Shown piece after piece: positions 3,700 through 62,273 of a stretch of DNA of 64,000 nucleotides; position 1 is the first letter of the stretch, and every line of letters starts with the position of its first letter. A program made the translations under genes and the position numbers. The notes below the pieces were generated by a model. It did not search any database. It saw only the letters and a list, made by a program, of their open reading frames with translations, and was not told the DNA's origin. The DNA is from Candidatus Omnitrophota bacterium (GTDB taxonomy: Bacteria; Omnitrophota; Gorgyraeia; Zapsychrales; Zapsychraceae). Where the stretch lies: contig DOGZ01000014.1 of NCBI GenBank assembly GCA_003528115.1, positions 166,081 to 230,080 on the forward strand, written 5' to 3'.

Positions 3700-3703
3700 T
3701 TAT

Positions 3704-6285: not shown

Positions 6286-6286
6286 G

Positions 6287-19951: not shown

Positions 19952-20104
19952 ACGGCGTCGTGTCAAGGTAATGATGAAGAGTTGGGTAGTAGTACTGTGT
20001 CAGCTAAATTTTTATATCAAGGAACACAGTACAACATTGCACTTTTTCTTGAAGTTAGCTAAAAAATTTATCTGACAGTGTAGTAGTTAACAGCGGGGAG
20101 ATGT

Positions 20105-20524: not shown

Positions 20525-20534
20525 AAAAAGCAGG

Positions 20535-35192: not shown

Positions 35193-35250
35193 CCATGATT
35201 TTCACGATGGAATCTTTGAATTGAGAATAGATCGGGAGTCGGCAACGCCT

Positions 35251-36216: not shown

Positions 36217-36219
36217 CGT

Positions 36220-41178: not shown

Positions 41179-41218
41179 ATGTGCTTTTTTTGAAATGCGA
41201 GTGGGGCATTAGTTTTAA

Positions 41219-41445
41219 GCCTTAAGGGAATATGCCCGAGGCGAGTTCCGGAGCCAACAGGCCTCTTCAGGCGGATGAGTCCGACGATCCGTCGCTCAAA
41301 CAGTCTTCGCGGCGCGGCTATTTCTTAAAGAATTTGTTGTAAGCCGCTTGCTGCGGAACTCGCTTGGGGATCCTTGGACTCATCCGCGTCCAGAAAGGGC
41401 TGTTGTACGAGGACTGTCTGAGCCGCGGGCATATTCCCTTAAGGC
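41219..41445. repeat. Perfect 20-bp inverted repeat (GCCTTAAGGGAATATGCCCG / CGGGCATATTCCCTTAAGGC) enclosing ~187 nt with two further imperfect complementary pairs; structured leader or MITE-like element
   Basis: The left arm is at 41219-41238 and the right arm at 41426-41445. The inner pairs are GGCGGATGAGTCC (41270) / GGACTCATCCGC (41376) and AGGCGAGTTCCG (41239) / CGGAACTCGCTT (41355). The element lies 64 nt upstream of the first radical SAM gene. Confidence 0.5.
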
Positions 41446-41508
41446 GTATTTAAGGTTACCCATGTGTAATTTCAAAGAACCGAAAATATAATCAAAGGTT
41501 ATGGACAG

Positions 41509-42618
41509 ATGAAGATCAACAGATGGACACGGTGGATACAAACGTTTCATTATCCCTCGTATTTTATATTTTTTGTGACCGCCCGCTGTAACGCCCGATG
41601 TCCGATGTGCTTTTATATGGAGAATATGGAAAGCAACGCGGCGAAGCGGGAGTTGAGGGTCGAGGAATATGAAAAGATCAGTCGCAGTATCCCATTGATC
41701 AATATCCTGGGTATTTCCGGCGGGGAACCGTTCTTGAGAGAGGATTTGCATGAGATTGTTCAGGTGATGTATAAAAACTGCTCGCCCTGGGTTGTTGATC
41801 TGCCGACCAATGGCTTTTTAACAAAAAGCGTGCTCAAACAGGTGGAAGAGATCGCACGGCGTTGTCCGGATATGGTGGTGGATCTCCAGCTTTCCATAGA
41901 CGGGCCGCCGGAGATCCATAATCAGATCCGAGGGCTTAAGGATGGGTTTGGCCGTATGCGCGAGACCTATCTGGGCTTGGTGGCGCTCAAGAAACGCTAC
42001 AGGAATTTGAAGGTCAAGGCCTGCGTGGTGTATTCGCATTATAACCAGGATCATATAGAGCCATTATTCGACATGCTTCACAGCGATTTTACGGATTTGG
42101 ACAGAATCGTTTTCTCCGTGGCGCACGGAAGCGTCTACAACGATGAAGCCATGGCTTTTGATTGGGAAAGGTATTTCAAGAACTGCGCGCGGATCCGAGA
42201 GGCGTCGACAGTAAAAGACATTAAAGATCTGCATTCGATTTTTACGATAGCCTTGAGAATTGTCAAAAATGATTTGCTTAAAGAGATCCTCCGGAAAAAA
42301 AATATGGTTCAATTATGCGGGGCCGGTCAAAAGGTTGTTGTGATTAATGAGCTTGGTCAGGTGTTTCCTTGTGAACCGCTATGGCGGCCCGTGGGGGATT
42401 TGACAAAGAATGGGTATGACCTGAATCAAATCCTTCGATCTGAGGCCATGAAACAATTCCAGGATCAAATCGTCCGGGAGAAATGCAACTGCCATTGGGG
42501 GCTGCCGATGTCCACCGCGCTCATTTATAGTCCCAGGTATTATCCGAAGATTTTGTTTGAAATGACAAGGATCTTATCCAGGAGTTTATTCCGCTCAAAA
42601 AAAATGGAAAACTTCTAA
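41509..42618 (+). CDS. Radical SAM enzyme with C-terminal SPASM/twitch-like Cys cluster
   Basis: The motif is CNARCPMC (CxxxCxxC). A GGEP-like ISGGEPFL is present. C-terminal cysteines occur in CGAGQ…PCEP…CNCHWG. Confidence 0.8.
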   Translation: MKINRWTRWIQTFHYPSYFIFFVTARCNARCPMCFYMENMESNAAKRELRVEEYEKISRSIPLINILGISGGEPFLREDLHEIVQVMYKNCSPWVVDLPTNGFLTKSVLKQVEEIARRCPDMVVDLQLSIDGPPEIHNQIRGLKDGFGRMRETYLGLVALKKRYRNLKVKACVVYSHYNQDHIEPLFDMLHSDFTDLDRIVFSVAHGSVYNDEAMAFDWERYFKNCARIREASTVKDIKDLHSIFTIALRIVKNDLLKEILRKKNMVQLCGAGQKVVVINELGQVFPCEPLWRPVGDLTKNGYDLNQILRSEAMKQFQDQIVREKCNCHWGLPMSTALIYSPRYYPKILFEMTRILSRSLFRSKKMENF

Positions 42619-42645
42619 ATTAAGAGGTTTTTCCCCGGGGGTTAC

Positions 42646-44124
42646 TTGAGAATTTTATTGATGTATCCGCAATATACGCACGGCAATGAATTTGACTCCA
42701 GAGCCCCATCCATGTCTCTTGTTTATTTGGCCGCGGTTCTGGAACGCGACGGACATCAGGTGACGGTCTACGATGCCTCGCTCGGGCCCATTGTCAGGAC
42801 GGGACATGTCTATCGTTACGGCTTCTCGGATGAGGATGTCCGTCAATATCTCACGGAGGCGAAATATGATTTTGTCGGGATAACGTGTTCCTTCACCTCC
42901 CGCTGGCGGTTTGTGGATAAGATCGCCCGTTTGGTCAAGGACGTGACGCCGGATGTCCCCGTGGCCATCGGCGGTTTATTTCCAACGTCTGAATGGGCCT
43001 ATTGCTTGCAAGAATGCGCGGCGGTTGATCTTATTTTATTGGGGGAAGCGGAATTGACCTTTTCACGGATAGTTCAGAATATGGCAGGAGGGAGCCGGGT
43101 CTCTGAGGCCTGCCGAGATGCCGACGGTGTGGCGTGGAGGTCAGACAATGAAATCCGGTATAATCCCAAAACGACGTATAATGAGCGTCTGGATGATTTG
43201 CCTTTTCCCGCCTGGCATCTGGTTGACCTTGAACGGTATTTTAAACTCCAGAAAAAGATTTTTGAATTGCCCGTTCCCTGCCTGCCCGTCTTATCCTCCC
43301 GCAGTTGTCCGATGGGGTGCACGTTTTGCAACATGTATGTCACCCACGGTCGCGCCTGGCGGCCCCGTTCTCCGGAGAATGTGCTTGATGAACTGGAATA
43401 TGTGATAAAGCGGTTTGGTGTCCGTCATTTTTATTTTGTCGACGATAATTTTAGTCTGCGCAGCGACAGGGCGAAAAAAATATGCCGCGGCATCCTTGAG
43501 CGAAGACTGAAGATAAAATATAATTTCCACAACGGTTTAAGCATCAAGACCCTGGATGAGGAACTGATTAAAGGGCTGAAGGATTCCGGATGCACCAGTG
43601 TGTGCCTCGCTGTGGAGTCGGGAAGCGAACGCGTCCGCAATCAAGTGTACGGGAAGGGATTAAAAACAGAAAAAATTTTTCAGGTTTTTAACTGGTGTCG
43701 CCGGGTCGGTATTCCGACCATCGGTTATTTTATGGTCGGCGCTCCGGGAGAAACAAGGAAGGATTTTGAGGAAACCAAAGCGCTTGTCGCCAAACTTCCC
43801 ATGAGTCTGGCCACCGTCGGCATTTATACGCCGTATCCCAAGACCGCCTTATATGACCAAAGCAAAGAAAAGGGATGGTTGATTGAGCCGCCGCCAGAGG
43901 ATGAAAACCGGGTGGAGATGTGCTCTGTCATGCTGCGCACACCTGATTTTGAACCGGAAGATGTCGCCGGGTGGCAAAAAGAATTATATTTTTGTTTCAT
44001 CCGGCATCATTGGCCGACACTTCTTCAGGAGTTCTTCCGGCCGTGGGGCGTCGTTAACGGGGACATGATTGGAAAGTTTTGGGGGATCATTAAATTCCAT
44101 TTTTTGAGTCGGAACAGGGCATAA
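42646..44124 (+). CDS. Class B radical SAM enzyme with N-terminal B12-binding-like domain
   Basis: The N-terminus RILLMYPQY…LVYLAAVLERDGHQVTVYD is Rossmann-like. The rSAM core is SSRSCPMGCTFCNMY. Confidence 0.8.
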   Translation: MRILLMYPQYTHGNEFDSRAPSMSLVYLAAVLERDGHQVTVYDASLGPIVRTGHVYRYGFSDEDVRQYLTEAKYDFVGITCSFTSRWRFVDKIARLVKDVTPDVPVAIGGLFPTSEWAYCLQECAAVDLILLGEAELTFSRIVQNMAGGSRVSEACRDADGVAWRSDNEIRYNPKTTYNERLDDLPFPAWHLVDLERYFKLQKKIFELPVPCLPVLSSRSCPMGCTFCNMYVTHGRAWRPRSPENVLDELEYVIKRFGVRHFYFVDDNFSLRSDRAKKICRGILERRLKIKYNFHNGLSIKTLDEELIKGLKDSGCTSVCLAVESGSERVRNQVYGKGLKTEKIFQVFNWCRRVGIPTIGYFMVGAPGETRKDFEETKALVAKLPMSLATVGIYTPYPKTALYDQSKEKGWLIEPPPEDENRVEMCSVMLRTPDFEPEDVAGWQKELYFCFIRHHWPTLLQEFFRPWGVVNGDMIGKFWGIIKFHFLSRNRA

Positions 44125-44131
44125 TGCTTTT

Positions 44132-45184
44132 ATGAAGAAATACGTTAATTATATGACGACCCTTATGAAAGGGCATTGGCTCCGGATCAATATGCCTATT
44201 CTGGTGACGCTCTGCGTGACCAATAGATGCAACCTCAAGTGTTTTTATTGTTACGAAGAATATTATGACAGGAATCACCGGGAATTTACGACGGAAGAAA
44301 TATTCAGGCTTATCGATGAGCTGGTTCAGATGGGGACCAAATATATTTCCATCGGAGGAGGGGAAGCTCTTTTAAGAAAAGACATTGGACAGATCGTTGA
44401 CAGGATCAAGCAGAGAAATATTTTATGCCATTTAAGCACAAACGGGTTGATTGTCAAAGATCATGTGCCGGTTTTAAAAAAGGTTGATTCTCTGGCAATT
44501 AGTATCGACGGCCGTTTGGAAAGTAATGACTTGAACAGAGGCAAGGGGACGTTTCGTAAACTCATCGAAGCCTTTGAGATCTTAAACAAAGAGAAGATTC
44601 AATTCCATTCCCACACGGTGCTGACGAGAAATAATAGCAATGCCGTCGAAGAGCTCATGGTTTTAGCCCGCGCCTATCATTTTCAAGCCCAGTTCAGCCC
44701 GTTGAGAGTTGAGGATTCTCCGGACAAAAGTCTTGGATTAGACGATATTCAGTTAAAAAAGATGATTCAAAAAATCCTAAAGCTTAAAAAACAGGGGGCG
44801 CCTGTTTTCTTCTCCGCCAAGACTTATGAAAACTTTTTGAACTGGCCGTTCCCGGCGTCGAAACAGTTCGTCTTTAATGAAAGTATTAAAGGCTATAAAC
44901 CCATCAAATGTTATATCAAGAATTTTGCCTGCCACATTGAGGCCAACGGTTTGGTCTATCCCTGCATTGTCTTAGTGAACAAATTCAAGGCGCTGAATCT
45001 TTTGGAGGTCGGTTTTCAGAAGGCATGGGAAAATTTGGCTGAAAACGGATGCCGGGCCTGCAATAATATTTGTTGTAATGACCTGAATCTTATCTTTGGT
45101 TTTAATCCCGATTCTATCTGGAATGCCCTGAAAATTGTCGTAGGTCGATTGACGGATAAATCAAGCGCTCCGTCTCTAAAATGA
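44132..45184 (+). CDS. Radical SAM/SPASM-domain enzyme
   Basis: Motifs are CNLKCFYC and GGGEALL. The SPASM cysteines are CYIKNFAC…PC…CRACNNICC. Confidence 0.8.
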   Translation: MKKYVNYMTTLMKGHWLRINMPILVTLCVTNRCNLKCFYCYEEYYDRNHREFTTEEIFRLIDELVQMGTKYISIGGGEALLRKDIGQIVDRIKQRNILCHLSTNGLIVKDHVPVLKKVDSLAISIDGRLESNDLNRGKGTFRKLIEAFEILNKEKIQFHSHTVLTRNNSNAVEELMVLARAYHFQAQFSPLRVEDSPDKSLGLDDIQLKKMIQKILKLKKQGAPVFFSAKTYENFLNWPFPASKQFVFNESIKGYKPIKCYIKNFACHIEANGLVYPCIVLVNKFKALNLLEVGFQKAWENLAENGCRACNNICCNDLNLIFGFNPDSIWNALKIVVGRLTDKSSAPSLK

Positions 45185-48090
45185 AAATGACCCTTAAAAA
45201 TTTAATTCTCCGTCTTCTTTTCAGCCTTCCGTTTATCGCCGCAGTTTTTTATTTAAAAAGTTATCATGGCGAGCTCATCAATAATGCCGAAGTCCAGTGG
45301 CAGTACTTGCAGAATTCCAAGGGGAAGATTTTCTTGGGCTTGGATGTTTACGCGCCATCCGGCATAACCATTCAAGAAATTTCTTCTCATCCATGGGACG
45401 TCACTCAATCATGGAAATTGGTGAACTATCCGGATTGGTTTAAGGGAGATGAGAATTTTGAGCGTTTCCCCGTTTTTAAGCAACTCGTTCATCCGTACCT
45501 TTCGACCCTTTATCATGAAAATGTCCTGTTGACGTCAGGGTTAGATCCAGGGAAGGGATGGTACACGTTTTTGTATGAATGGAATCCCGCGGATTCCCGG
45601 TCTCTTCCGCCGGAAGACTCTCTCAGAATCCGGTATAAAAATGCGGGCACGCAAAACATCTATGACGCCGAAAAGATCAGCGCGCCAAGGATCCTGAGTG
45701 CCGGGGGAGAGCTCAGAGATAAAAAGCCTTCCTTGAAATTTGAAGTCTTATATCCCATGTCTCACGCGGCAAGACAGCCTGGAGAAAACACAGAGGTTGT
45801 TTTAAATAATTTGTTGCCGGACGACGCGGACGCGTTTCAATTAAAAGATCTGAATCGTCATGGATATAGCGTTGTCCTGCGGAACAAGGATGGGGTTGTT
45901 CTTGACACGCTTGAGGGTTTTGTCATGTGGGATACGCACGCAGTCGGGCAAGTCTTTATGAAACGGCAAGCATCGGATGATGTTGGGGAAAATACAGGGG
46001 GGACAGACTTCACGGTTTTAGGGAGACATGCCACGCTGGTTATTTTTATAATATATTTTGTCATCATCCATTGGTTCATCGGCGCGAGGTTTGCCCGTTG
46101 GCGGGGTATTGATTTAGACGGCGAGGCCTCGAAGATTGTATTACCAGTTTTTCTCGGGCTTGTTGTGTCCACGTATTTATTTTTTGTCCTAGGGTTCATA
46201 CAAGGGCTCACCTTCCCGATCATCTTTGGGGTTTTATTGGTGATCTACCTCACAGGATTCATGGAAGAGCCCTTCTTCCTTGTGAAGAGAATTATAGGAC
46301 TCGAGTTGAGAAAGGCCTTACAACAGCCGTGGCGAGTCATTTTTTTGCTTTTGTTAGGGTGGGGACTCTATCAAAATTTTGTTTATTGTTTTTTGCCTTC
46401 TACGTACGCGGATGGATCCGGGGATATTGAGAATTCGTATTTGCCTAATTTGGATTATTACATGATCACCCATAGTTTTAAAGTCCCTATCCAGAATTCA
46501 ACGACGGGAATTCATTCTCAAACGTTTGATGTTTTAAGAACGATCGTGAAGATTTTGGCTGGAGAGGCGGGAGTTTACTTATTATCTTTTGTTTACTTGG
46601 CGCTCGCCCTCGGAAGTATGTATTTGATAGCAAAGAAAATATTTCGCACAAAAAATCTGCTGATCTATATTTCAGTCTTGCTTCTGTTGTCGGCAAATCT
46701 TTTCACGGAATTGATCCATTTCGGGAAAATTCATATTGCCGCCTTAGCGTTCTTGTTAGCCGCGTTACTTTGTATGAGTTCGGAAGATTTAAAGAAAAAT
46801 TATATTTTACCCGCGGTTTTTTTAGGGGTGATTGCGTCGCAATATGTTTATTTTCTTGGTTTGGGGGTGGCGTACTTCGTGATGATCGGCGTTCACGCGT
46901 TTGTTCAGCACAAGGAATTCAGGCCGCGCGTCCTGAAACCCTTGTCAGGTGCTTTTCTATTGTTTTTGATCCTGAGCGCAGTATTTAATTTAAAACTTAT
47001 CATGGAAGTCGGCACCTTTGTCCCCCCGGGCATTTCCCCGGAGTGGATGAGTGATTTCTTCTTAAAAATGAATTCAGAGAATCCGCGATATCATTTCATT
47101 GATAATAATTATATAAGGCATTTTTATAAATATCATGGCCTCGCGAATTTTGGTCAAGCGATGACACTTTCCACCCTCATGGATAAAGTCATTCAGACAA
47201 CCAAGAACCTGAATTTTTATGTGTTATTATTGTTTCTCCCCTTGTTGAAGAAGTTCGATGTGTCTAAAATGTATTATATGATTATGAGCGCGGTTCTTGT
47301 TCTATTATTTGTGACGATCTTCCCTAACGCTCCCCGGTTAAGTATGTTTTATTATTATCCTGTCATTATTATTCAATGGGCGATTATCGATAGCCTTATA
47401 TTTAGAGTAGAGAAAATAGTGCCCATTAAAAGTTTAGATGTAAAAAGTCGAATGATATACGCAGTGGTGGGTTTGGTTTTATGCGTGGTCATTTTTGATG
47501 CGCCGGGCTCAAGAATTGAAATAAGAAGAGCGGCTTTTTTAAATACTATGCGCAATCCTTTACATGTGGAAGGGCTATTTAATGAGGCCCAGAGCGTTTT
47601 CTGGGGGAGGGAGTCTGCCTACGATTATTTACAAAAGATTCAGACCGATCCCGAGATGTTTCCAGGGACAAGATTCGGGGCGCATCGAAACTTTGATTAC
47701 GCGATGCTCATCCGGCAATACACCCGTGTCGATGACATGATCCTGACGGTGCCGGTGAGGTTTCATTCTCATGCCATGAGGCCTTTGACGGCCAGACACG
47801 CCCTGGGGAGTGTCCTATATCAGCTTGATGTGAAGAAAATCATGGATGATTTGAAGAAACTGAATATCCGTTATCTGTCCGTCATGCCGATCCATTACCG
47901 GGATTACAATCCGTTTTATACGCCTGTTTTTGAGGACCAAATTTTTTTTAAATACTTTAAACCGCTCTTCAGTTATAATGGCACAACATTTTATAAAATA
48001 ATTTACGATGGGAGTCATGAAGAATACACCTCCACGCCTTATAATGTCAAAGGATACCCTTTTGTTCCCATGATGGCAGAAAGGAGATAA
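45181..48090 (+). CDS. Large polytopic membrane protein (969 aa): signal/anchor, ~250 aa extracytoplasmic domain, >12 TM helices, ~250 aa C-terminal domain; function unknown (possible glycosyl/lipid transferase)
   Basis: It has a long ORF with an ATGA overlap upstream and a 2-nt gap downstream. The hydropathy pattern supports this topology. No motif was recognised. Confidence 0.7.
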   Translation: MKMTLKNLILRLLFSLPFIAAVFYLKSYHGELINNAEVQWQYLQNSKGKIFLGLDVYAPSGITIQEISSHPWDVTQSWKLVNYPDWFKGDENFERFPVFKQLVHPYLSTLYHENVLLTSGLDPGKGWYTFLYEWNPADSRSLPPEDSLRIRYKNAGTQNIYDAEKISAPRILSAGGELRDKKPSLKFEVLYPMSHAARQPGENTEVVLNNLLPDDADAFQLKDLNRHGYSVVLRNKDGVVLDTLEGFVMWDTHAVGQVFMKRQASDDVGENTGGTDFTVLGRHATLVIFIIYFVIIHWFIGARFARWRGIDLDGEASKIVLPVFLGLVVSTYLFFVLGFIQGLTFPIIFGVLLVIYLTGFMEEPFFLVKRIIGLELRKALQQPWRVIFLLLLGWGLYQNFVYCFLPSTYADGSGDIENSYLPNLDYYMITHSFKVPIQNSTTGIHSQTFDVLRTIVKILAGEAGVYLLSFVYLALALGSMYLIAKKIFRTKNLLIYISVLLLLSANLFTELIHFGKIHIAALAFLLAALLCMSSEDLKKNYILPAVFLGVIASQYVYFLGLGVAYFVMIGVHAFVQHKEFRPRVLKPLSGAFLLFLILSAVFNLKLIMEVGTFVPPGISPEWMSDFFLKMNSENPRYHFIDNNYIRHFYKYHGLANFGQAMTLSTLMDKVIQTTKNLNFYVLLLFLPLLKKFDVSKMYYMIMSAVLVLLFVTIFPNAPRLSMFYYYPVIIIQWAIIDSLIFRVEKIVPIKSLDVKSRMIYAVVGLVLCVVIFDAPGSRIEIRRAAFLNTMRNPLHVEGLFNEAQSVFWGRESAYDYLQKIQTDPEMFPGTRFGAHRNFDYAMLIRQYTRVDDMILTVPVRFHSHAMRPLTARHALGSVLYQLDVKKIMDDLKKLNIRYLSVMPIHYRDYNPFYTPVFEDQIFFKYFKPLFSYNGTTFYKIIYDGSHEEYTSTPYNVKGYPFVPMMAERR

Positions 48091-48092
48091 TC

Positions 48093-49136
48093 ATGCCGGC
48101 AAGTCCAGCGCGAGAAGTAGTTAGGTGGATAAAGACAACGCGGTTGTATGCCCGAGTCGGTCTGACAAGAATGAACCCTCGAAAGGCCTTTGTGATGCTG
48201 CGGTATTGGATCTTGACGCATCTCTTTAAGAAGGATATTCCCTGGCTGATTGAGTTTTCCGTGACCTACCGGTGCCAGGCCAGTTGCAAACATTGTTCTG
48301 TTTCCAATTATTTCCCCGAGGCGAATAAGTCCAAGGAGCTGTCCACGGAGAAGGTCAAAGACATTTTGAAGCAGGCGGTGACGCTGGGGATCCCTAAAAT
48401 TGACTTCTTCGGCGGCGAGCCTCTTTTGCGGGCGGATATCATTGAGCTGGTAACCTACGGTGAGGGGTTGGGATTATACACCTCCATCACTACGAACGCC
48501 TGGCAGTTGACGTATGAGAGGGTCAAACAGTTAAAAAAGGCAGGGATCAGTTGTATCAACGTGAGTATCGACAGTCCCCAGGCGGAAGAGCATGACCGAT
48601 CGCGCGGGGTCAAAGGGATGCATCAAAGGGCGGTGGAGGGAATCACCTATTGTCGTCAAGAAGGTATTCCGTGCATCGTCTCTACGTACGCCACACGTCG
48701 CCGGATTCAGAATTTCGCGGCCGGGGAAAAGGACGACAGTGTCTTGAGCGGTATTTTGAGGTTGTCCAGGAAACTGGAGGCCACAGGCGTGAGGATTTTA
48801 TTTCCGATCATTGCCGGGGAGTGGGTTAAGGCCAAGGAAAATGAATTTACCGATGAGGAAAAGCGGGGGATTATCGAGAACATCGATCCGTCTTTTGCCT
48901 TTATTGAGGGGGCCTACTCGGTTGTTAAAAAGAACAAGGTGTGTCAGGCGCTCAGCGGAAAGATGTTGAATATTTCTCCTTATGGCGATCTTCAGCTTTG
49001 TGTGGCTTTCACGAATACGTTTGGAAATGTGAAAGAACAGTCTTTGGAAACGTTGATGAAAGCCATGCGCAGACATCCCATTTATCAGAAGAATAAAGAC
49101 GGGAGCTGCTGCAGCACGACGGAATTAAAGGTGTAG
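48093..49136 (+). CDS. Radical SAM/SPASM-like enzyme
   Basis: Motifs are CQASCKHC and FGGEPLL. C-terminal cysteines are CQALSG…LCVAF…GSCCS. Confidence 0.8.
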   Translation: MPASPAREVVRWIKTTRLYARVGLTRMNPRKAFVMLRYWILTHLFKKDIPWLIEFSVTYRCQASCKHCSVSNYFPEANKSKELSTEKVKDILKQAVTLGIPKIDFFGGEPLLRADIIELVTYGEGLGLYTSITTNAWQLTYERVKQLKKAGISCINVSIDSPQAEEHDRSRGVKGMHQRAVEGITYCRQEGIPCIVSTYATRRRIQNFAAGEKDDSVLSGILRLSRKLEATGVRILFPIIAGEWVKAKENEFTDEEKRGIIENIDPSFAFIEGAYSVVKKNKVCQALSGKMLNISPYGDLQLCVAFTNTFGNVKEQSLETLMKAMRRHPIYQKNKDGSCCSTTELKV

Positions 49137-49181
49137 AGAAGAGATGGAAATCGGGGATTGAAGGGGAAGAGAGAATAGAAA

Positions 49182-50714: not shown

Positions 50715-50715
50715 C

Positions 50716-51531
50716 ATGAAAGATAACTTAAATTTTTTAAAAGATAAAGCCCGTCAGGTTCGAGGCAAAGTTCTGGAGATGACGGCCGCGGCCGGTAAAG
50801 GGCATCTGGGCGGAGCTTTTTCTTGTACGGAAATCTTGGTGGCGTTGTATTACGGCGGCATCTTGCGTCTGGATGCTTCTCGTCCCCGCTGGGAGGGGCG
50901 CGACCGGTTTCTCTTGAGTAAAGGCCACGCGTGTGAGGCGTTGTATGTTATTCTCGCGGACTTGGGATTCTTTCCCGGAGGAGAATTGGAAAATTACAAT
51001 AAGCCCGGGTGTTTACTGGGAGGGCATCCTAACCGGAGTATCGCGGGGATAGAGGCGGACACAGGATCCTTGGGACACGGCCTTGGGATCGGGGCTGGGT
51101 TGGCCCTGGCAGCCAAGATGGATCAAAAGGATTTTAAGACGGTTGTTTTGTTAAGTGACGGCGAGTGTTGTGAAGGATCGGTATGGGAGGCGGCGATGTT
51201 TGCGGCCAAACATAAGTTGAATAATCTGATCGGTATTGTGGACAAAAACGGGCTTTGTGTCACAGACATCATTGAAGATTGCGTGGCCTTGGATCCGCTG
51301 GATAAAAAATGGATCGCCTGTGGCTGGGAGGTTGTTGAAATGGATGGCCATTCGTTCGACGATCTTCTTACCGCCTTTGAGCGAGTTCCCTCAGATAGAC
51401 CGCGGATGATTATTGCTGACACGGTGAAAGGCAAGGGCGTCTCTTTTATGGAGGGCAACATCGCATGGCATCACGGCGTGCCTAAAGGGGAATTGTTGCA
51501 GCAGGCGAGAAAAGAACTGGAAATCATTTGA
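50716..51531 (+). CDS. Transketolase, N-terminal (TPP-binding) subunit of a split transketolase
   Basis: Motifs are GHLGGAFSCTEILVALYY and GSLGHGLGIGAGLA. ATG 50716 lies 2 nt after the upstream stop. Confidence 0.85.
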   Translation: MKDNLNFLKDKARQVRGKVLEMTAAAGKGHLGGAFSCTEILVALYYGGILRLDASRPRWEGRDRFLLSKGHACEALYVILADLGFFPGGELENYNKPGCLLGGHPNRSIAGIEADTGSLGHGLGIGAGLALAAKMDQKDFKTVVLLSDGECCEGSVWEAAMFAAKHKLNNLIGIVDKNGLCVTDIIEDCVALDPLDKKWIACGWEVVEMDGHSFDDLLTAFERVPSDRPRMIIADTVKGKGVSFMEGNIAWHHGVPKGELLQQARKELEII

Positions 51532-52529
51532 ATATCCGTATGACATCATCGGACAAAGACCTCAGAGACGCTTTTTTTGACGAGCTGTATGCGATCGCCC
51601 GTCAGGATCCGCGGGTGATCCTGCTGACGGCGGATATGGGGGCCCATAGTCTGGGGCGGTTTAAGAAAGATCTGTCCCGGCAATATATCAATGTCTGCGT
51701 GGCCGAACAGAATATGATCAGCGTGGCGGCGGGTCTGGCGTTGGGCGGAAAAAAAGTTTTTGTATATACGATTATTCCCTTTGCCACGATGCGTTGTTTC
51801 GAGCAGATTAAGGTTGATGTGTGTTGTATGCGTCTGCCGGTGACGGTTGTCGGGATCGGGACAGGATTGACGTACGGCGGTGACGGGCCCACCCACCACG
51901 GAATTCAAGATATCGCCGTGATGCGCAGTCTCCCGGAAATGACTATTTTGAATCCCTGCGATGCCGTAATTACACAAGCCGCAGCCCGATTGGCCTATGA
52001 ACAACAGGGGCCTGTGTATGTTCGGTTGGAAAGAGGGCGGTTCCCCTTGATTTACGGTGCTGGGTCCGCGGATTTCTCGAGGGGTTTGCACCAGATCAGG
52101 GAAGGAGAGGATATAACGCTCATCGCTACCGGGAATATGGTCCATCGGGCCGTTGAGGCCGCGGATATCCTGAGGAAGAAATTTCTATCCGTCCGTGTGG
52201 TGGATGTGTATAGGATTAAGCCTTTGAATACGGCTTTGTTAATAAAGATGATGGAAGGGACAAAGGGCGTTGTGACACTCGAGGAGAATTGTTTGACCGG
52301 CGGGTTGGGTTCGGCGGTGAGCGAGGTTTTATGTGATTCCTGTAAGGGGATTGCGCTTAAACGTCTGGCCATCCCGGATGAACATTGTTTTGCCTCCGGT
52401 GACCGTGAGGCGCTTCAGCAGTTATATCAATTAGATGTGTCCAATATCGTGCATTCCATTGTGAGGTGGTTTCCTCAACGGGCGGAGCATGTTTTCATGG
52501 AAGGGAAAGAAGATGGATTTAGGCATTAA
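51528..52529 (+). CDS. Transketolase, C-terminal (pyrimidine-binding + C-domain) subunit
   Basis: The segment ILLTADMGAHSLGRFKKDL…NVCVAEQNMISVAAGLALGGKKVFVYT is present. It has an ATGA overlap with the N-subunit. Confidence 0.85.
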   Translation: MNIRMTSSDKDLRDAFFDELYAIARQDPRVILLTADMGAHSLGRFKKDLSRQYINVCVAEQNMISVAAGLALGGKKVFVYTIIPFATMRCFEQIKVDVCCMRLPVTVVGIGTGLTYGGDGPTHHGIQDIAVMRSLPEMTILNPCDAVITQAAARLAYEQQGPVYVRLERGRFPLIYGAGSADFSRGLHQIREGEDITLIATGNMVHRAVEAADILRKKFLSVRVVDVYRIKPLNTALLIKMMEGTKGVVTLEENCLTGGLGSAVSEVLCDSCKGIALKRLAIPDEHCFASGDREALQQLYQLDVSNIVHSIVRWFPQRAEHVFMEGKEDGFRH

Positions 52530-53298
52530 AGGGAAATACGCGTTGGTGACCGGGGGGACGCACGGGATCGGACGGGCGATTGCCCTGGCATTGGCCGATG
52601 AGGGATGTCATGTTGCGGTGTGTTCAAGAAGCAGGGAGCGTGTGGAGAAAACAAAACAGGAGCTCTCCGCCAAGGGCGTGCAATGTTTAGGGGTGGAAGC
52701 CGATGTCATGAAGGACTCTGATATCGAGAAGGTTATGAGTCTGGTCGGCAGACAATGGGGAACTCTGCATATTTTGATTAATAACGTCGGTGGCGGTGGC
52801 CGCTGGGGAAGTGAAATCGTTGAAGAGACCAAAGAGGAAACATGGCTGGAGGTCTACAACAAGAATGCCTTGGCCGCGATGAAATTTACTATGCGGACGA
52901 TCCCCTGGATGCGCAAGCAGAAATGGGGACGGGTTGTGACGATCACGTCGATCTTCGGCCGAGAAGCGGGCGGGCGGCCGTGGTTTACGATGGCCAAGAT
53001 GGCGCAGACGGCCTTGATGAAGACCCTGGCCAAGAAGGCGTATTTGATTCAAGACGGCATAACGTTTAACAGTGTCGCCCCCGGGGCCATTATGATCGCC
53101 GGGACGGGTTGGGAAAAAGAACTTAAGGAAAATCCCCGGCAGGTGCAGGATTTTATCCATGAAGAACTTCCTTTAGGCCGTTTGGGAACGCCTGAGGAGG
53201 TGGCCAACGCGGTTGTCTTCTTATGTTCGCAACAGGCGAGTCTGGTCAACGGCGCTTCGATTCCTGTGGATGGCGGACAGAGCATGAGTGTTCTTTAA
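52513..53298 (+). CDS. SDR-family oxidoreductase (FabG-like)
   Basis: Motifs are YALVTGGTHGIGRAIA and NNVG. It lies in the Y/K catalytic region. Confidence 0.8.
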   Translation: MDLGIKGKYALVTGGTHGIGRAIALALADEGCHVAVCSRSRERVEKTKQELSAKGVQCLGVEADVMKDSDIEKVMSLVGRQWGTLHILINNVGGGGRWGSEIVEETKEETWLEVYNKNALAAMKFTMRTIPWMRKQKWGRVVTITSIFGREAGGRPWFTMAKMAQTALMKTLAKKAYLIQDGITFNSVAPGAIMIAGTGWEKELKENPRQVQDFIHEELPLGRLGTPEEVANAVVFLCSQQASLVNGASIPVDGGQSMSVL

Positions 53299-53301
53299 AG
53301 G

Positions 53302-53344
53302 AGTACTTTGTAACCTAAATTTCTGAATTGTGGAACAAAGTACT
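53302..53344. repeat. 10-bp perfect inverted repeat AGTACTTTGT…ACAAAGTACT with 23-nt spacer, immediately after the SDR stop (operator or internal terminator/attenuator candidate)
   Basis: It is seen directly in the sequence. A short partial T-tract (tctctcggattttg) follows. Confidence 0.4.
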
Positions 53345-53382
53345 TCTCTCGGATTTTGTAAAAAAATTGTTCAGAAAATAAT

Positions 53383-54078
53383 GTGACAATGGTGGAGGAT
53401 CCTGCGATTAAAGTTTCTTTGATTATTTTTACCTTAAACGAGATCGACGGCATGAAGGTGATTATGCCGCGGATCAGGAAAGAATGGGTGGATGAGCTCA
53501 TTATCGTTGACGGCGGATCGACGGATGGGACGGTGGCTTATGCCCGGGAACAGGGCTATTTTATTTTTACTCAGCAGGAGAAAGGCGCCGGCGCCGCGTT
53601 TTTGGAATCCGTGGCTAAAGCGACAGGAGATATCGTGATCGTCTTCAGCCCTGACGGAAACTCCGTCCCTGAAAAGATTCCGGAATTAATAGCGAAAATG
53701 AAACAGGGCTATGATATGGTGATTGTCTCCAGGTATCTGGGGGGCGCGAAAAGCTATGACGACGATTGCGTCACCGCTTTTGGGAACCGCTTGTTTACCG
53801 CCTTAATCAATATATTGTTTGGAACCAGGGTCACGGATTCCTTAGTCATGTATCGTGCCTTTAAGAGAGAAATCGTTCAGGATCTTAAAATCAATACAAA
53901 GACCGTCTCCTGGGGAACCCAGTTTTTGGCCAGGGCGGCAAGGAAGAAGTTAAAAATAGGTGAGATCCCCGGCGACGAACCGCGCCGCATAGGAGGCGTG
54001 AGAAAGATGCATCCTTTAAAGAACGGCTTGAGCGAACTGTTCATGATCCTGAGAGAATTTTTAAACGGGGGATCCTGA
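53383..54078 (+). CDS. GT2 glycosyltransferase, polyprenyl-phosphate sugar synthase (DPM1-like)
   Basis: The N-terminus VSLIIFTLNE…ELIIVDGGSTDGT is present, with the DxD-like motif FSPDGN. Confidence 0.75.
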   Translation: MTMVEDPAIKVSLIIFTLNEIDGMKVIMPRIRKEWVDELIIVDGGSTDGTVAYAREQGYFIFTQQEKGAGAAFLESVAKATGDIVIVFSPDGNSVPEKIPELIAKMKQGYDMVIVSRYLGGAKSYDDDCVTAFGNRLFTALINILFGTRVTDSLVMYRAFKREIVQDLKINTKTVSWGTQFLARAARKKLKIGEIPGDEPRRIGGVRKMHPLKNGLSELFMILREFLNGGS

Positions 54079-54079
54079 A

Positions 54080-55066
54080 ATGGGATTTTATGAGAAAAGA
54101 ACTGTCCTTGTTACGGGCGCCACAGGGTTGGTGGGGGCCAATCTGATTCAACGGCTGTTGCCCTTAGGCGTTCATGTCCGGGCCACGTTGCATCGCCGAG
54201 ATCCGGTCATTAGCGATCCTAAGATTGATTATATAAAGTGTGATTTGACCAATCCGGATGACTGCCGTAAGATTGTGCCGGAGGTGGATTATGTTTTTCA
54301 TTGCGCGGCTAATACTTCCGGGGCTCATGTGATAACGAACAACCCCCTGACGCATGTGACGACCAATATTGTGATGAACGCCTATCTTTTGGAGGCGGCT
54401 TATCAGGCGAAAGTCTTAAAATTTTTGTGGATCAGCAGTTCGACGGGATACCCATCGACCGGCACCCGTCCCATGAAGGAAGAAGAAATGATGGTCGGCG
54501 ATCCTTTTGACAAATATTTCGGTGTTGGATGGATGAAAAGGTATTCAGAAGTCCTTTGCCGGATGTATGCCGAGAAGCTGAAAGTCCCCATGGCCACCAT
54601 CGTCTTGCGCGCGACCAATATTTACGGCGAATATGATGATTTTGATTTTGAAACATCCCATGCCTTCGCGGCGCTTATTAGAAAAGTCGCGCAGAGGCAT
54701 CGTCCGATTGAAGTGTGGGGCACGGGTGAGGACGTCAGGGATTTGATCTATGTGGGTGATTTCATTGAGGCGATGCTTATCGCCATGGAGAAATGTTACG
54801 GGTACAAGGTCTTTAATATCGGGTTTGGCCGAGGGTACAAAATCAAAGAAGTTCTCAATATGATCCTGGAAGAAGACGGTTATCATGATGCGCGCTTAAC
54901 CTTTGATGCCACCAAACCCACGACGATCCCGATCCGGCTGGTGGACATCCGTAAGGCGGAAAAAGAGCTTGGTTTTAAACCCAAGACTTTTCTGCGGGAA
55001 GGGATCCGGAAGACCTTGCATTGGTATAAGGCGCATCAAATGGAGAAAGCGGAGAAGGCGGCATGA
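54080..55066 (+). CDS. NAD-dependent epimerase/dehydratase family (NDP-sugar modifying)
   Basis: The Rossmann motif VLVTGATGLVGANL is present. The SDR-extended fold length is 328 aa. Confidence 0.8.
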   Translation: MGFYEKRTVLVTGATGLVGANLIQRLLPLGVHVRATLHRRDPVISDPKIDYIKCDLTNPDDCRKIVPEVDYVFHCAANTSGAHVITNNPLTHVTTNIVMNAYLLEAAYQAKVLKFLWISSSTGYPSTGTRPMKEEEMMVGDPFDKYFGVGWMKRYSEVLCRMYAEKLKVPMATIVLRATNIYGEYDDFDFETSHAFAALIRKVAQRHRPIEVWGTGEDVRDLIYVGDFIEAMLIAMEKCYGYKVFNIGFGRGYKIKEVLNMILEEDGYHDARLTFDATKPTTIPIRLVDIRKAEKELGFKPKTFLREGIRKTLHWYKAHQMEKAEKAA

Positions 55067-56688
55067 AGGTATCCATTCAAGAAACCCCGTCACACCTGCC
55101 TCGGTCCGAGGCCTTCGCCGGGGGGAGAAAAGTTCCTTCATTGAAAACAAAAGAGGACCGTGTGGATGTGGTGTTTATTTATCCCAAGACGGGGATAGAT
55201 TTAGGCGCTACGATCGGCCCGCCGCACGCCCTATTATCTGTGGCGGCGCCTCTTTTAAAAAAAGGATTCAAAGTCAAGATTGTCGATCAACGCACGGACG
55301 CGCATTGGCGTGAAACCTTAAGCGGGATGTTGGCGCAAAGGCCGATTTGTGTCGCGTTGACCTCCATGACCGGCACGCAGATTTATTTCGCGTTAGAAGC
55401 CGCTAAACTTGTGCGAGAAGTCTCCAACGGAAAGATCCCTATTGTCTGGGGCGGGGCGCATCCGTCCAGCCTTCCGGAACAGACTTTGAAAAGCGAATAT
55501 GTGGATGTGGTGTGTATCGGCGAAGGGGATATCACGTTCTTGGAATTGGTGCAGGTGTTGGCGAATAAAGAACCGTTGGATCAGGTCAAAGGGATTGTCT
55601 TTAAAGACGGCGTCAAAATGACCATGACTCCGGGCCGGCCTCTGCTGGACGTGGAGACACTCCTGCCCGTGCCGTGGGAATTGGTGGACGTTGAAAAATA
55701 TATCCACAGGGATTTCTACCTGAAAGAAACCCGGCGGAGTCTGGATATCGGCCAGACCTCGCGGGGGTGTCCATTTCAATGCGGATTTTGTTCAAGCGCC
55801 GCGTTGCGCCACAGGCAGTGGCGTCCCATGTCGGTCAAGAGATCTCTGGAGATGATCCTCGAACCGGTCAAGAGATTCCATCTGGATGGTATTTGGATTC
55901 GGGATGATGAGTTTTACATCGACCGGGAGCGGGCCTACGAGATCTGTCAGGGCATTATTGACAGCGGCGTTAAAATCAAATGGTATACTTCTGGGACGCG
56001 GGTAAATATTTTTAATATGGCCACGGACAAAGACCTCGATATCCTCAAAAGAAGCGGCGCCGACACATTGAAGTTTGGGGCCGAATCCGGCTCGAACAGG
56101 ATTTTAAAATTGATGAAGAAAGGGATCCGTTGTGAGGATACCATTGAGGCGAATCTCAAGGCCAAGAGACACGGCATTATCCCTGTCTTTGCCCTCATGA
56201 TTGGATTTCCAACGGAAACATTTGAAGATATCGACAAAACGATTGATCTGTTTGTCCGGTTAAAGAAGGATAATCCCAAGGCCCAGTTTGAAATTATAGG
56301 AACATTTACGGCCATGCCCCAGACGCCGCTTTACGAGGTGGCTTTACAGCACGGGTTACATCCTCCGCAATCGTTGGAAGGCTGGATTGATTGGCTTTCG
56401 GATGAGTATGATATGGAAGGAAAAAAAATCCCGTGGTTTAACGCTTCGGAGAGAAAGAAGATCGGTAACATCACTTATATGAGCCTTTTGGCCAACAGTT
56501 CTTTGAACGCGATCGGCGGGGTTTCTAACAATGCTATGAGGCTTCTCTTAAAATTGTTTATTAGTCCGCTGAGCCGGTATGAGGGGTATAAACTCAGAAG
56601 AAAGTTGTATGGTTTTTCTCCGGAACTGGATTTCATGCGGTTTCTGCGACGAAAAGTCTTTTACAGGCGGAATCAGAGTATTCATTAG
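55063..56688 (+). CDS. Class B radical SAM enzyme with N-terminal B12-binding-like domain
   Basis: The N-terminus VDVVFIYPKTG…LLSVAAPLLKKGFKVKIVD is present. The rSAM core is GQTSRGCPFQCGFCSSA. It has an ATGA overlap with the epimerase. Confidence 0.8.
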   Translation: MKVSIQETPSHLPRSEAFAGGRKVPSLKTKEDRVDVVFIYPKTGIDLGATIGPPHALLSVAAPLLKKGFKVKIVDQRTDAHWRETLSGMLAQRPICVALTSMTGTQIYFALEAAKLVREVSNGKIPIVWGGAHPSSLPEQTLKSEYVDVVCIGEGDITFLELVQVLANKEPLDQVKGIVFKDGVKMTMTPGRPLLDVETLLPVPWELVDVEKYIHRDFYLKETRRSLDIGQTSRGCPFQCGFCSSAALRHRQWRPMSVKRSLEMILEPVKRFHLDGIWIRDDEFYIDRERAYEICQGIIDSGVKIKWYTSGTRVNIFNMATDKDLDILKRSGADTLKFGAESGSNRILKLMKKGIRCEDTIEANLKAKRHGIIPVFALMIGFPTETFEDIDKTIDLFVRLKKDNPKAQFEIIGTFTAMPQTPLYEVALQHGLHPPQSLEGWIDWLSDEYDMEGKKIPWFNASERKKIGNITYMSLLANSSLNAIGGVSNNAMRLLLKLFISPLSRYEGYKLRRKLYGFSPELDFMRFLRRKVFYRRNQSIH

Positions 56689-56704
56689 AAAGGGAATAGA
56701 GGCG

Positions 56705-58174
56705 TTGAATCCAAAAATTATCCTCGCCACGGTAAATTCGAAAAGGGATCTTTATGCCGCGACAACGGATGAGTTTTCAGCCGTTGCTCCGAATATTCAG
56801 ATGGGGCTCTTGGCGTCTTACGTGAAGTCCCGGGGTATCGATGTCGAGATCATCGAATCCGACGTGGATATGATCTCGATGGATCAACTGCTGGATATCG
56901 CCCAGAAGAAGAGTCCTACGCTTTTGGGGATCATTTGTTCAGGGGCCAATCCCTCTTCCTCCACCATGGTCATGGCGGGTATCGTGGATTTCTTTGAGAG
57001 GTTTCATCAAAGGAAGATGAATGTCAAGACATTCATTTGGGGGCCGCATCCGACGGTTCTTCCGGAGAGGTCGTTAAAGGAAACGGGCGCGGATTTTGTG
57101 GTCAGAGGCGAAGGGTACACAACCATCGTTGATCTGTTTCACGCTTTGCGGGACGGCGGAGATTTGGAGAAAATCAGCGGCCTGGCTTATTGCGTTAAGA
57201 ACGGGGCGGTTCAAGAGCCGGCTGTGATTGTGACACAAGACACCCCTTTGATCAAAGATCTTGACAGCCTGCCGCCGGTTGACTGGGACGTTATGCGTCC
57301 GTCCCGTTATCGGGCGCATAACTGGCATTGTTTCGGAGATCTCCATCATCGAACGCCCTATGCTATTCTCTGGACCAGTTTCGGATGTCCGTTCCCCTGT
57401 AATTTTTGTTCCATCAATAATCTCTTCGGTAAAAGGACTCAACGGTTTCGCAGCGTTGACCGCGTGATTGACGAAATCAGCTTGCTGGTTCAAAAATACA
57501 AGGTTAAACATATCAAGATATTGGATGAATTATTTGTGGTTAACTCTAAAAGAATAGATGAATTTTGTGACAAGCTCGAGGTCAAAGGATTTGACTTGAA
57601 TATGTGGGCGTATTCCAGGGTGGATACGATCAGCCGGCCTTTGCTTAAAAGGCTCAAGAAGGTCGGGATGAATTGGATCTCGTACGGATTTGAATCCGCG
57701 ACACCGGAGATTTTAAAGACGGCGGATAAAGGGAATCAAAAGACGGATGTGGATCAGGTGATCCGTATGACCCAGGAGGAAGGGGTCTCGATATGCGCGG
57801 ACGTCATGTTCGGTTTGGAGGGCGAGAATGAAGAGACGATGAACCGCACGTATGATTTCCTTGTTAAATACAATTTTGAATGGGCGAATATTTATCCGGT
57901 CTTTGCTTATCCGGGGACGAAATTCTTTCGAGAAGTCGAGCCTCCGAAGAACTGGAAGGCTTATTCCCTTTACGGGTATGAATGCGCGCCGATGGCAACG
58001 AAATATCTTACCTCCAAAGAGGTGCTCAAATTCCGTGATGAGGCCTTTGTCCGTTATCATGGCCGTCCGGAATACCTGTGGATGATCGAGAAAAAATTTG
58101 GGGTCGATACCAAGGAACATATCTTAAGAATGATCGCCATTCCCTTGAGAAGAAGGTTATTGGAGAATGAGTAG
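56705..58174 (+). CDS. Class B radical SAM enzyme with N-terminal B12-binding-like domain
   Basis: The probable start is TTG 56705 (LNPKIILATVN…), preceded by agagg. The B12-like domain reads MGLLASYVKSRGIDVEIIESD. The rSAM core is WTSFGCPFPCNFCSINN. The ORF track starts earlier, at 56579. Confidence 0.75.
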   Translation: MNPKIILATVNSKRDLYAATTDEFSAVAPNIQMGLLASYVKSRGIDVEIIESDVDMISMDQLLDIAQKKSPTLLGIICSGANPSSSTMVMAGIVDFFERFHQRKMNVKTFIWGPHPTVLPERSLKETGADFVVRGEGYTTIVDLFHALRDGGDLEKISGLAYCVKNGAVQEPAVIVTQDTPLIKDLDSLPPVDWDVMRPSRYRAHNWHCFGDLHHRTPYAILWTSFGCPFPCNFCSINNLFGKRTQRFRSVDRVIDEISLLVQKYKVKHIKILDELFVVNSKRIDEFCDKLEVKGFDLNMWAYSRVDTISRPLLKRLKKVGMNWISYGFESATPEILKTADKGNQKTDVDQVIRMTQEEGVSICADVMFGLEGENEETMNRTYDFLVKYNFEWANIYPVFAYPGTKFFREVEPPKNWKAYSLYGYECAPMATKYLTSKEVLKFRDEAFVRYHGRPEYLWMIEKKFGVDTKEHILRMIAIPLRRRLLENE

Positions 58175-62221: not shown

Positions 62222-62273
62222 GGGGGCGTTATTGGGGGCAACGCAGTTTTGGCGCGTTTCGAGAGTTTTTTCC

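Follow-up and report, generated by a model that had tools for sequence, protein, structure and literature searches.

What is made by a bacterial operon that combines seven radical S-adenosylmethionine (radical SAM) enzymes with a split transketolase, sugar-modifying enzymes, and large membrane proteins? The question is raised by a locus in a 64,000-nucleotide stretch of DNA from an uncultured Candidatus Omnitrophota bacterium (contig DOGZ01000014.1 of assembly GCA_003528115.1, positions 166,081 to 230,080 of the forward strand), hereafter called the window. The 250-kb contig is derived from a groundwater metagenome (BioProject PRJNA268031), and the window also matches the metagenome-assembled genome (MAG) GCA_001805405.1, 'Omnitrophica WOR_2 bacterium GWC2_45_7'. 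Seven radical SAM genes lie co-directionally at 41509–58174; four encode B12-binding/radical SAM proteins (B1–B4) and three encode SPASM/Twitch-type proteins of about 350 aa (rS1–rS3). They are accompanied by short-chain dehydrogenases/reductases (SDR1 and SDR2), the transketolase chains TK_N and TK_C, a family 2 glycosyltransferase (GT2), a nucleoside diphosphate (NDP)-sugar epimerase-like protein (EPI), and the membrane proteins M969, M801, and PMT2. The operon is a real, conserved, and uncharacterized biosynthetic unit. With slightly more belief than doubt, we propose that it produces a rare and heavily carbon-modified sugar, which is then attached to an acceptor in the cell envelope via a polyprenyl-phosphate carrier.

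According to the open reading frame (ORF) list, the plus strand carries every sizeable ORF across 40357–62221. Stop and start codons overlap at rS2/M969 (ATGA), TK_N/TK_C, EPI/B3, B4/M801 (8 nt), and M801/PMT2 (ATGA), and the remaining intergenic gaps are mostly 1–45 nt, except that 84 nt precede GT2 and 330 nt separate SDR1 from rS1. An earlier note on this DNA had described a translationally coupled cluster headed by SDR1. The five overlaps are real, but the 330-nt gap stands between SDR1 and rS1. The note had also ended the cluster at 58174, leaving out M801 and PMT2, which are both coupled and extend the unit by about 4 kb. The region 40357–62221 is most likely a single operon of roughly 22 kb. 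PMT1, another membrane protein gene, lies 132 nt upstream of SDR1, and its membership in the operon is uncertain. The best site in this spacer, upstream of SDR1, matches a sigma70-like promoter at 11 of 12 positions, which is a hint only, as the counts from promoter and terminator scans of the window equal the level of shuffled sequences. The gap at 41179–41508 contains only ORFs of 36 and 47 aa, which are unconserved, since related loci have just 8–16 nt at the equivalent place. Rfam gave no match in this gap, and neither a cobalamin riboswitch nor any other RNA was found by Rfam in the whole window.

The Radical_SAM domain (PF04055) is found by Pfam in all seven proteins, with scores of 41.7–94.7 bits against a cut-off of 29.5 bits. 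Each protein has a single CxxxCxxC motif, which is invariant in all orthologues aligned. The N-terminal B12-binding domain (PF02310) scores 69.9, 57.5, 59.2, and 49.3 bits in B1, B2, B3, and B4, respectively, against a cut-off of 32.1 bits, in agreement with the four class B enzymes that had been recognized from the sequence at 42646, 49182, 55063, and 56705. The other three had all been called SPASM enzymes. This is too strong, because only rS1 (27.1 bits) exceeds the cut-off of Pfam SPASM (PF13186, 21.5 bits), while rS2 (17.5 bits) and rS3 (19.3 bits) fall below it. The conserved C-terminal cysteine residues number six or seven in rS2, four in rS1, and three or four in rS3. In rS1, Cys27, Cys31, and Cys34 together with Cys270, Cys288, Cys326, and Cys328 are invariant in 18 of 18 sequences, and in rS2, Cys260, Cys267, Cys278, Cys307, Cys310, and Cys314 are invariant in 12 of 12. 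These counts suggest that rS2 is a full SPASM enzyme, whereas rS1 and rS3 are Twitch-like. Each of the seven proteins shares 50–70% identity with its own orthologue in related loci and 21–30% with its paralogues within the window (BLAST); therefore, they are seven old and distinct enzymes, not recent duplicates.

None of the seven enzymes reaches a curated cut-off in NCBIfam, so that they are not orthologues of a known single-function family; such orthology would, according to the earlier note, have overturned its finding. The best scores are 58 bits against 340 (PapB) for rS1, 114 against 265 (mycofactocin) for rS2, and 121 against 500 (AhbD) for rS3; those of B1, B2, B3, and B4 are 208 against 575, 157 against 575, 147 against 481, and 160 against 481. 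The HpnJ family (cut-off 577.6 bits) is among the better matches of B1 and B4 at 157–159 bits, and the AprD4 and BlsE families reach 92 bits (cut-off 500) and 67 bits (cut-off 400). The families compared include anSME, PqqE, MftC, AhbD/NirJ, and peptide maturases on the SPASM side, and Sden_1168, BchE, HpnJ, HpnR, AprD4, and ladderane-type lipid enzymes on the B12 side. Among solved structures, rS3 matches the cytosylglucuronate decarboxylase BlsE best (E 1.7e-13), B1 matches AprD4 (E 7.5e-19), and B3 matches OxsB (E 1e-18). These matches are weak, and all three of these relatives act on sugars. For rS1, the top hit among solved structures is the tetraether synthase GDGT-MAS (E 2e-6), with a match that covers the radical SAM core alone, and anSME appears in the PDB search of rS2 only at E 1e-5. 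Phosphonate biosynthesis was considered, as the top-scoring family for both B1 and B2 is a P-methyltransferase (Sden_1168), and was set aside: the scores are far below the cut-off, and no phosphoenolpyruvate mutase is present in the annotated loci.

Gene fusions link these enzymes to sugar chemistry. An exhaustive phmmer search with rS1 gave 586 representatives at E ≤ 1e-30, and 17 of the best 150 are 618–757 aa long. Eight long relatives were scanned. Seven of them (P0181, P0183, P0199, P0201, P0210, P0214, and P0304; 618–757 aa, 30–39% identity to rS1) consist of an N-terminal GT2 domain and a C-terminal rS1-like radical SAM/SPASM part, and the eighth (P0283) has a C-terminal GT1-like domain in place of GT2. 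We know of no characterized member with the GT2-radical SAM/SPASM architecture, and its occurrence in the wider rS1 family suggests that glycan-directed radical SAM chemistry may be commoner than is now recognized. B2 is linked to the transketolase in a similar way: it sits directly upstream of the transketolase genes in every case, and P0058 (790 aa, on a 2.6-kb Logan contig) is an in-frame fusion of a B2-type enzyme (63% identity to B2) with a complete Transketolase_N domain, a single instance for which a sequencing artefact is possible.

The conservation of the locus was examined in metagenome contigs, because a scan of 185,579 species genomes with the M969 profile gave one locus. Among 5.8 billion proteins, M969 has 20 homologues at 37–48% identity; M801 has 35, and every named one belongs to Omnitrophota. 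B2 is more widespread, with about 110 cluster representatives at more than 50% identity in MAGs of Omnitrophota, Desulfobacterales, Brocadiales, Elusimicrobia, and Firestonebacteria. A metagenome scan with the B2 profile gave 51 loci, and the 12 non-redundant ones in which B2 has 6 kb or more of flanking sequence on each side were counted at an identity cut-off of 45%. rS1, rS3, TK_C, and SDR2 are present in 11 loci each, TK_N and GT2 in 10 each, and SDR1 in 8. Of the other genes, rS2 and B3 occur in 5 of the 12 loci each, EPI in 4, B1 and B4 in 3 each, and M969 and M801 in 1 each. M969 is found in two further loci (L005 and L012) at 36–38% identity, under the threshold of the count. The same gene set is repeated in the loci with M969 relatives, and it is retained in rearranged order in L012 and L042. 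Because this set recurs in independent metagenomic loci, the arrangement is not due to chance.

The minimal cassette is SDR1-rS1-(a PHP_C-like gene of ~280 aa)-rS3-B2-transketolase-SDR2-GT2, and the window is an expanded version of it. All seven radical SAM orthogroups occur together in four lineages only (the window, L008/L016, L013, and L042). Orthologues of B4 share 64–71% identity in L007, L013, L016, L031, and L042, and M801 follows B4 directly in the window, L007, and L066. The PHP_C-like protein (~270–290 aa, 51–73% identity among copies) has a cysteine-rich C-terminus and lies between rS1 and the next radical SAM gene of related loci; tblastn of the entire window did not find it. The accessory genes of related loci encode a GHMP kinase, NTP transferase, DegT aminotransferase, GDP-mannose dehydratase-like protein, carbamoyltransferase, second thiamine diphosphate (ThDP) enzyme pair, and F5/8 type C (discoidin) domains. 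L013 adds an O-carbamoyltransferase to the cassette (18990–20822), and the extra genes of L066, which belongs to 'Ca. Saelkia tenebricola', are an E1_dh/Transket_pyr pair, two more epimerase/dehydratase genes, and a second GT2 (3120–7016). Every conserved or accessory neighbor of the cassette is a carbohydrate enzyme.

The earlier note had listed a 969-aa polytopic protein, a split transketolase, SDRs, a DPM1-like GT2, and an epimerase-like gene among the radical SAM genes, and Pfam, PDB, and hydrophobicity searches found each of them. TK_N matches 6yak (E 5e-69) and TK_C matches 6yaj (E 4e-55), both from the split-chain transketolase of C. hydrogenoformans, and from these sequence matches the pair is judged to be a genuine split transketolase. 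The phosphate-binding site should be noted. In the human enzyme, Arg318, Ser345, His416, and Arg474 form the canonical sugar-phosphate pocket, in which the histidine (His461 in Escherichia coli) binds the substrate phosphate. TK_C fails this pattern at the histidine position. Gly111 stands in place of human His416, and likewise in 24 of 24 cassette orthologues, whereas the solved split transketolase retains the histidine. The flanking Arg, Asp, and Arg/Lys residues (Arg13 and Arg/Lys169 among them) are retained. L005, L007, and L008 have a second transketolase pair farther upstream, which lacks the equivalents of the Asp and Arg besides the histidine. The glycine hints that the substrate of TK_C may be non-standard. 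As for the neighboring enzymes, orthologues of SDR1 (52–60% identity) immediately precede rS1 in the related loci, those of SDR2 share 59–75% identity, and the best PDB matches of EPI are UDP-glucose 4-epimerase and GDP-fucose synthases. A role of the transketolase in 5'-deoxyadenosine salvage, an idea taken from PMC8102628, was set aside: the nucleosidase, kinase, isomerase, and aldolase of that route are absent, and the transketolase is tied to B2, SDR2, and GT2 even in cassettes with only three radical SAM enzymes.

The best NCBIfam matches of GT2 are AglJ (103 bits) and a dolichyl-phosphate hexose transferase (84 bits), both below the cut-offs, and its best PDB match is the dolichyl-phosphate mannose synthase (DPMS) of Pyrococcus furiosus (E 1e-11), followed by ArnC. 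All of these named relatives make polyprenyl-phosphate-linked donors. M969, which has about 12 hydrophobic segments, and M801 gave no match in Pfam, even at E up to 10, or in NCBIfam, and their predicted structures model as GT-C glycosyltransferases. The YfhO family (PF09586) was not found in M801 itself (E up to 10) and is found in 8 of 26 aligned relatives (best E 1.8e-8). PMT2 scores 24.9 bits for PMT_2, just below the cut-off of 26.1 bits, and contains Pfam TPR families. Since profile-profile comparison showed no relation of M969 to M801 or to PMT2, these proteins were compared by fold. With PMT1 and PMT2 included, the window has up to four GT-C-type proteins. Apart from PIG-U/GAB1 (GPI transamidase), the GT-C enzymes matched by the models are, we presume, transferases that use polyprenyl-(di)phosphate-linked donors. 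One M969 homologue (P0013) has F5_F8_type_C domains within the protein itself, and in L007 (9187–15838) two tandem M969 paralogues follow a separate F5/8 type C ORF. These domains suggest carbohydrate binding on the periplasmic side. The modeled GT-C folds, the relatives of GT2, the fusions of rS1-like enzymes with GT2, and the accessory genes all point in the direction that had been proposed from the sequence, a carbon-modified glycan or lipid-linked moiety made at the membrane.

Starting from the domain identities, the predicted GT-C folds, the conserved synteny, and the fusion links, we infer the substrates, reactions, order of steps, acceptor, and product as follows. In the cytoplasm, EPI, SDR1, and SDR2 would oxidize, epimerize, or reduce an NDP-hexose or a carrier-linked sugar. 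rS1, rS3, and rS2 may abstract hydrogen atoms from C–H bonds of the sugar, leading to dehydrogenation, epimerization, or decarboxylation as with BtrN, BlsE, and HygY. B2, together with B1, B3, and B4, might add methyl groups or catalyze dehydration or rearrangement, with GenK, Fom3, AprD4, and OxsB as models. The split transketolase with its altered phosphate pocket could transfer a two-carbon ketol unit to a carbonyl group of the sugar, and SDR2 would then reduce the newly formed ketone. GT2 would load the sugar onto polyprenyl phosphate, and after flipping, M969, the YfhO-like M801, and the PMT_2-TPR protein would pass it on to an acceptor in the periplasm or the outer envelope.

The last steps of this scheme have precedents. 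In multi-component transmembrane glycosylation, a GT2 enzyme loads polyprenyl phosphate in the cytoplasm and a GT-C enzyme transfers the sugar outside (PMC8035078, PMC5836110). As in the CsbB/GtcA/YfhO (teichoic acids), GtrA/B/C (O-antigen), and ArnC/ArnT (lipid A) systems, the operon has a DPM1/ArnC-like GT2 beside predicted GT-C-fold transferases, one of them probably YfhO-related. Those systems move ordinary sugars (glucose, N-acetylglucosamine, galactose, and Ara4N) and contain neither radical SAM enzymes nor a transketolase, while the operon has both. The aminoglycoside and nucleoside antibiotic pathways of BtrN, BlsE, AprD4, GenK, and OxsB share Twitch-type and B12-domain radical SAM enzymes that act on sugar carbons, but the similarity is weak (E 1e-13 to 1e-19) and of partial length, and the antibiotic pathways combine one or two radical SAM enzymes with soluble GT-A or GT-B enzymes, where the operon combines seven with GT-C proteins. 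In the HpnH/HpnI/HpnJ pathway to the hopanoid cyclitol ether and in archaeal calditol synthase, radical SAM enzymes, including the B12-domain enzyme HpnJ, rearrange a sugar attached to a membrane lipid. The operon differs from the hpn pathway in lacking a squalene-hopene cyclase, an HpnH-level match, and any further hpn gene, and in its additional transketolase and polyprenyl-phosphate-type GT2. ThDP enzymes also serve in the formation of branched or extended deoxysugars, namely YerE (yersiniose) and the E1-like pair AviB1/AviB2 (avilamycin). A two-subunit ThDP enzyme inside a sugar-tailoring cluster with a ketoreductase after it is a shared feature, and L066 has an E1_dh/Transket_pyr pair as well. 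The enzyme of the operon is, however, a split transketolase and not of the acetolactate synthase or E1 type, and it differs from canonical transketolases at the phosphate-binding histidine.

Several points weigh against the proposed envelope glycosylation. The similarity of the radical SAM enzymes to characterized ones is weak throughout and largely limited to the common core, and the reaction types given above are guesses for this reason. Cobalamin binding, for which there is no dependable sequence signature, is predicted for B1–B4 from the domain, and AprD4, the nearest relative of B1 with a solved structure, reportedly works without cobalamin. GT2 (231 aa) is below threshold in NCBIfam and has no transmembrane helices, whereas GtrB, ArnC, and archaeal DPMS have them. 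No small flippase of the GtrA/GtcA or ArnE/F type was found by Pfam among the operon genes, in which no spare coding space is left, and the number of GT-C-type proteins also sets the operon apart from the known GT2/GT-C systems. The M969 model is only moderately confident (pLDDT 67). Furthermore, M969 is present in only about 20 lineages, compared with about 110 that have B2. Orthologues of PMT1 and PMT2 are absent from the related loci, and four loci (L013, L024, L025, and L026) show no GT-C gene within 10 kb.

Because of such loci without a GT-C gene inside 10 kb, the most serious alternative is that the product is a soluble, secreted specialized metabolite, an aminoglycoside-, cyclitol-, or nucleoside-like pseudo-sugar, and that the GT-C neighbors have a separate envelope function or serve in self-resistance or export. 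The enzyme palette resembles that of aminoglycoside and nucleoside antibiotic clusters (Twitch-type and B12-domain radical SAM enzymes, SDRs, and, in the relatives, DegT and carbamoyltransferase), and AprD4, OxsB, and BlsE are the nearest solved relatives. We regard this alternative as unlikely, however, since the DPM1/ArnC-like GT2, a kind of enzyme that uses polyprenyl phosphate, belongs to the core, the M969 gene separates rS2 from rS3 in the window with codons that overlap or adjoin theirs, and the M801 and B4 genes overlap. In addition, no gene for 2-deoxy-scyllo-inosose synthase, a sugar-phosphate cyclase, nucleoside formation, efflux, or resistance was found by Pfam in the loci. It is somewhat less probable still that the radical SAM enzymes tailor a lipid by methylation, cyclization, or cross-linking of polyprenyl, hopanoid-like, or membrane-spanning tails, with the sugar enzymes providing a head group. 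Lipid-tail enzymes do occur among B12-domain radical SAM proteins, the NCBIfam matches include HpnJ, HpnR, and a 'lipid biosynthesis B12-binding/radical SAM' family, and the nearest solved structure to rS1 is GDGT-MAS. Some Omnitrophota carry Hbs/Mss lipid radical SAM genes (bioRxiv 10.1101/2023.10.20.563219). The scores to these families are 100–160 bits against cut-offs of 360–650, though, and the core of the 526-aa GDGT-MAS chain is all that matches proteins of about 350 aa. No prenyl or acyl transferase, PlsA/Ger, or squalene-hopene cyclase is annotated in any locus, and the fusions of rS1 relatives to glycosyltransferases and the tie of B2 to transketolase also argue for sugar rather than lipid chemistry.

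Two further explanations are far less probable. In a ribosomally synthesized and post-translationally modified peptide (RiPP) pathway of the proteusin or ranthipeptide kind, SPASM and B12-domain enzymes would modify a ribosomal peptide, and PapB, WgkB, StsB, ApyD, and a RiPP C-methyltransferase family are indeed among the NCBIfam matches. All of these peptide-maturase scores are far below the cut-offs, none of the seven enzymes has a PqqD/RRE domain in Pfam, and the cassette includes neither a protease nor a peptide-type exporter. The dense packing leaves no spare coding space for a precursor, and the only roomy gap, before rS1, holds the two unconserved small ORFs already described. We thus concur with the earlier note in disfavoring a RiPP, and consider it very improbable. 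Slightly weaker yet is the case for a defense island with the small radical SAM proteins as viperin-like antiviral enzymes. The pVip models of PADLOC match rS1–rS3 at 43–75 bits, and viperin-like enzymes appear among the PDB matches of rS2, but the same proteins score higher (114–121 bits) to unrelated radical SAM families; therefore, the pVip matches reflect the shared core. With these core-level scores, and in the context of a conserved biosynthetic operon in which no nucleotide kinase or other defense gene was seen, the defense reading, hardly credible, was rejected.

Envelope glycosylation with a carbon-modified sugar, then, remains our preferred reading. Its polyprenyl-phosphate-dependent part is of a known kind, while the tailoring module of radical SAM enzymes and transketolase appears to be unprecedented. 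No published description of the cassette was found in the literature on the gene combination, on Omnitrophota radical SAM enzymes, or on 'Saelkia tenebricola', and no characterized pathway of this composition was found in the literature searched, as had been suspected from the sequence. More tentatively, and with considerable doubt, the product may belong to a new class of envelope sugars, chain-extended or branched, multiply C-methylated or deoxygenated, and possibly carbocyclic, for which the radical SAM enzymes act on a polyprenyl-phosphate- or nucleotide-linked sugar and the transketolase adds two carbons to a non-phosphorylated intermediate. If so, bacterial glycans would be built here by a biosynthetic logic that is new, and that would be widespread among anaerobes not yet in culture (Omnitrophota, Desulfobacterales, Brocadiales, Elusimicrobia, and Firestonebacteria). 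The preferred reading, if true, would provide seven uncharacterized carbohydrate-acting radical SAM orthogroups, four of them with B12 domains, two new subfamilies of GT-C enzymes, and a transketolase that has been drawn into the tailoring of glycans. It would also extend radical SAM chemistry from antibiotic sugars to envelope glycobiology, and the cell surface of Omnitrophota and other uncultured anaerobes would for the first time become accessible to biochemistry. The minimal cassette (two Twitch-type radical SAM enzymes, one B12 radical SAM enzyme, the transketolase, two SDRs, and GT2) is small enough to reconstitute. The operon is rich for enzyme discovery, and it is one of many orphan clusters until its product is seen.

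Table 1. Genes of the operon and its upstream neighbor PMT1 (positions in the window), and the PHP_C-like gene of related loci (positions in each locus)
Feature	Position	Strand	Description
PMT1	38587..40224	+	Polytopic PMT_2 (GT-C-type) protein, C-terminal TPR; PMT_2 31.4 bits; nine hydrophobic segments
SDR1	40357..41178	+	Classical SDR, first gene of the cassette; Pfam adh_short 153.8 bits
rS1	41509..42618	+	Radical_SAM and SPASM; core cassette
B1	42646..44124	+	B12-binding and Radical_SAM (93.7 bits); accessory; start placed at 42661 by gene callers
rS2	44132..45184	+	Radical_SAM 94.7 bits; SPASM-like C-terminus; accessory
M969	45181..48090	+	969 aa; predicted GT-C-fold membrane protein with a predicted N-terminal periplasmic beta-rich domain (residues ~37–262)
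rS3	48093..49136	+	Radical_SAM 83.2 bits; Twitch-like C-terminus; core cassette
B2	49182..50714	+	B12-binding and Radical_SAM (Pfam); core cassette
TK_N	50716..51531	+	N-terminal ThDP-binding chain of split transketolase; Pfam Transketolase_N 127.7 bits
TK_C	51528..52529	+	Transket_pyr and Transketolase_C chain of split transketolase (Pfam)
SDR2	52513..53298	+	FabG-like classical SDR; Pfam adh_short_C2 171.8 bits; core cassette
GT2	53383..54078	+	DPM1/ArnC/AglJ-type polyprenyl-phosphate glycosyltransferase-like; Pfam Glycos_transf_2; core cassette
EPI	54080..55066	+	Extended-SDR NDP-sugar epimerase/reductase; Pfam Epimerase 160.8 bits, GDP_Man_Dehyd
B3	55063..56688	+	B12-binding and Radical_SAM (Pfam); accessory
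B4	56705..58174	+	B12-binding and Radical_SAM (Pfam); TTG start as in databases; accessory
M801	58167..60572	+	801 aa; predicted divergent YfhO-family GT-C-fold glycosyltransferase
PMT2	60569..62221	+	PMT_2-like membrane domain, C-terminal TPR; ten hydrophobic segments; coupled to M801
PHP_C-like gene	L005 6305–7129; L008 5165–6031; L013 5318–6190; L066 8157–8966		

The surroundings of the operon should also be described. Upstream on the same strand (4633–27151) lie two consecutive type II secretion/type IV pilus-like sets, each with a T2SSE ATPase, T2SSF, pseudopilins, PilM/N/O-like proteins, and a secretin. Since pilins are substrates of GT-C enzymes in some bacteria, the products of these sets could be candidate acceptors. 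Directly upstream of PMT1 (35221–38573) are genes for an ABC ATPase, an ABC-2 permease, and a GldG-like ABC_transp_aux protein. Related loci do not have these genes beside the cassette. The gene that immediately follows the operon encodes a protein with Ub-Mut7C and Mut7-C RNase domains (62136–63020), and it shares about 85 nt with the end of PMT2 in a different frame. Nearly all non-nested ORFs of at least 100–150 aa in 1–63000 are on the plus strand, which makes an unusually long co-directional stretch, and the GC skew stays positive throughout the window when taken in 2-kb bins.

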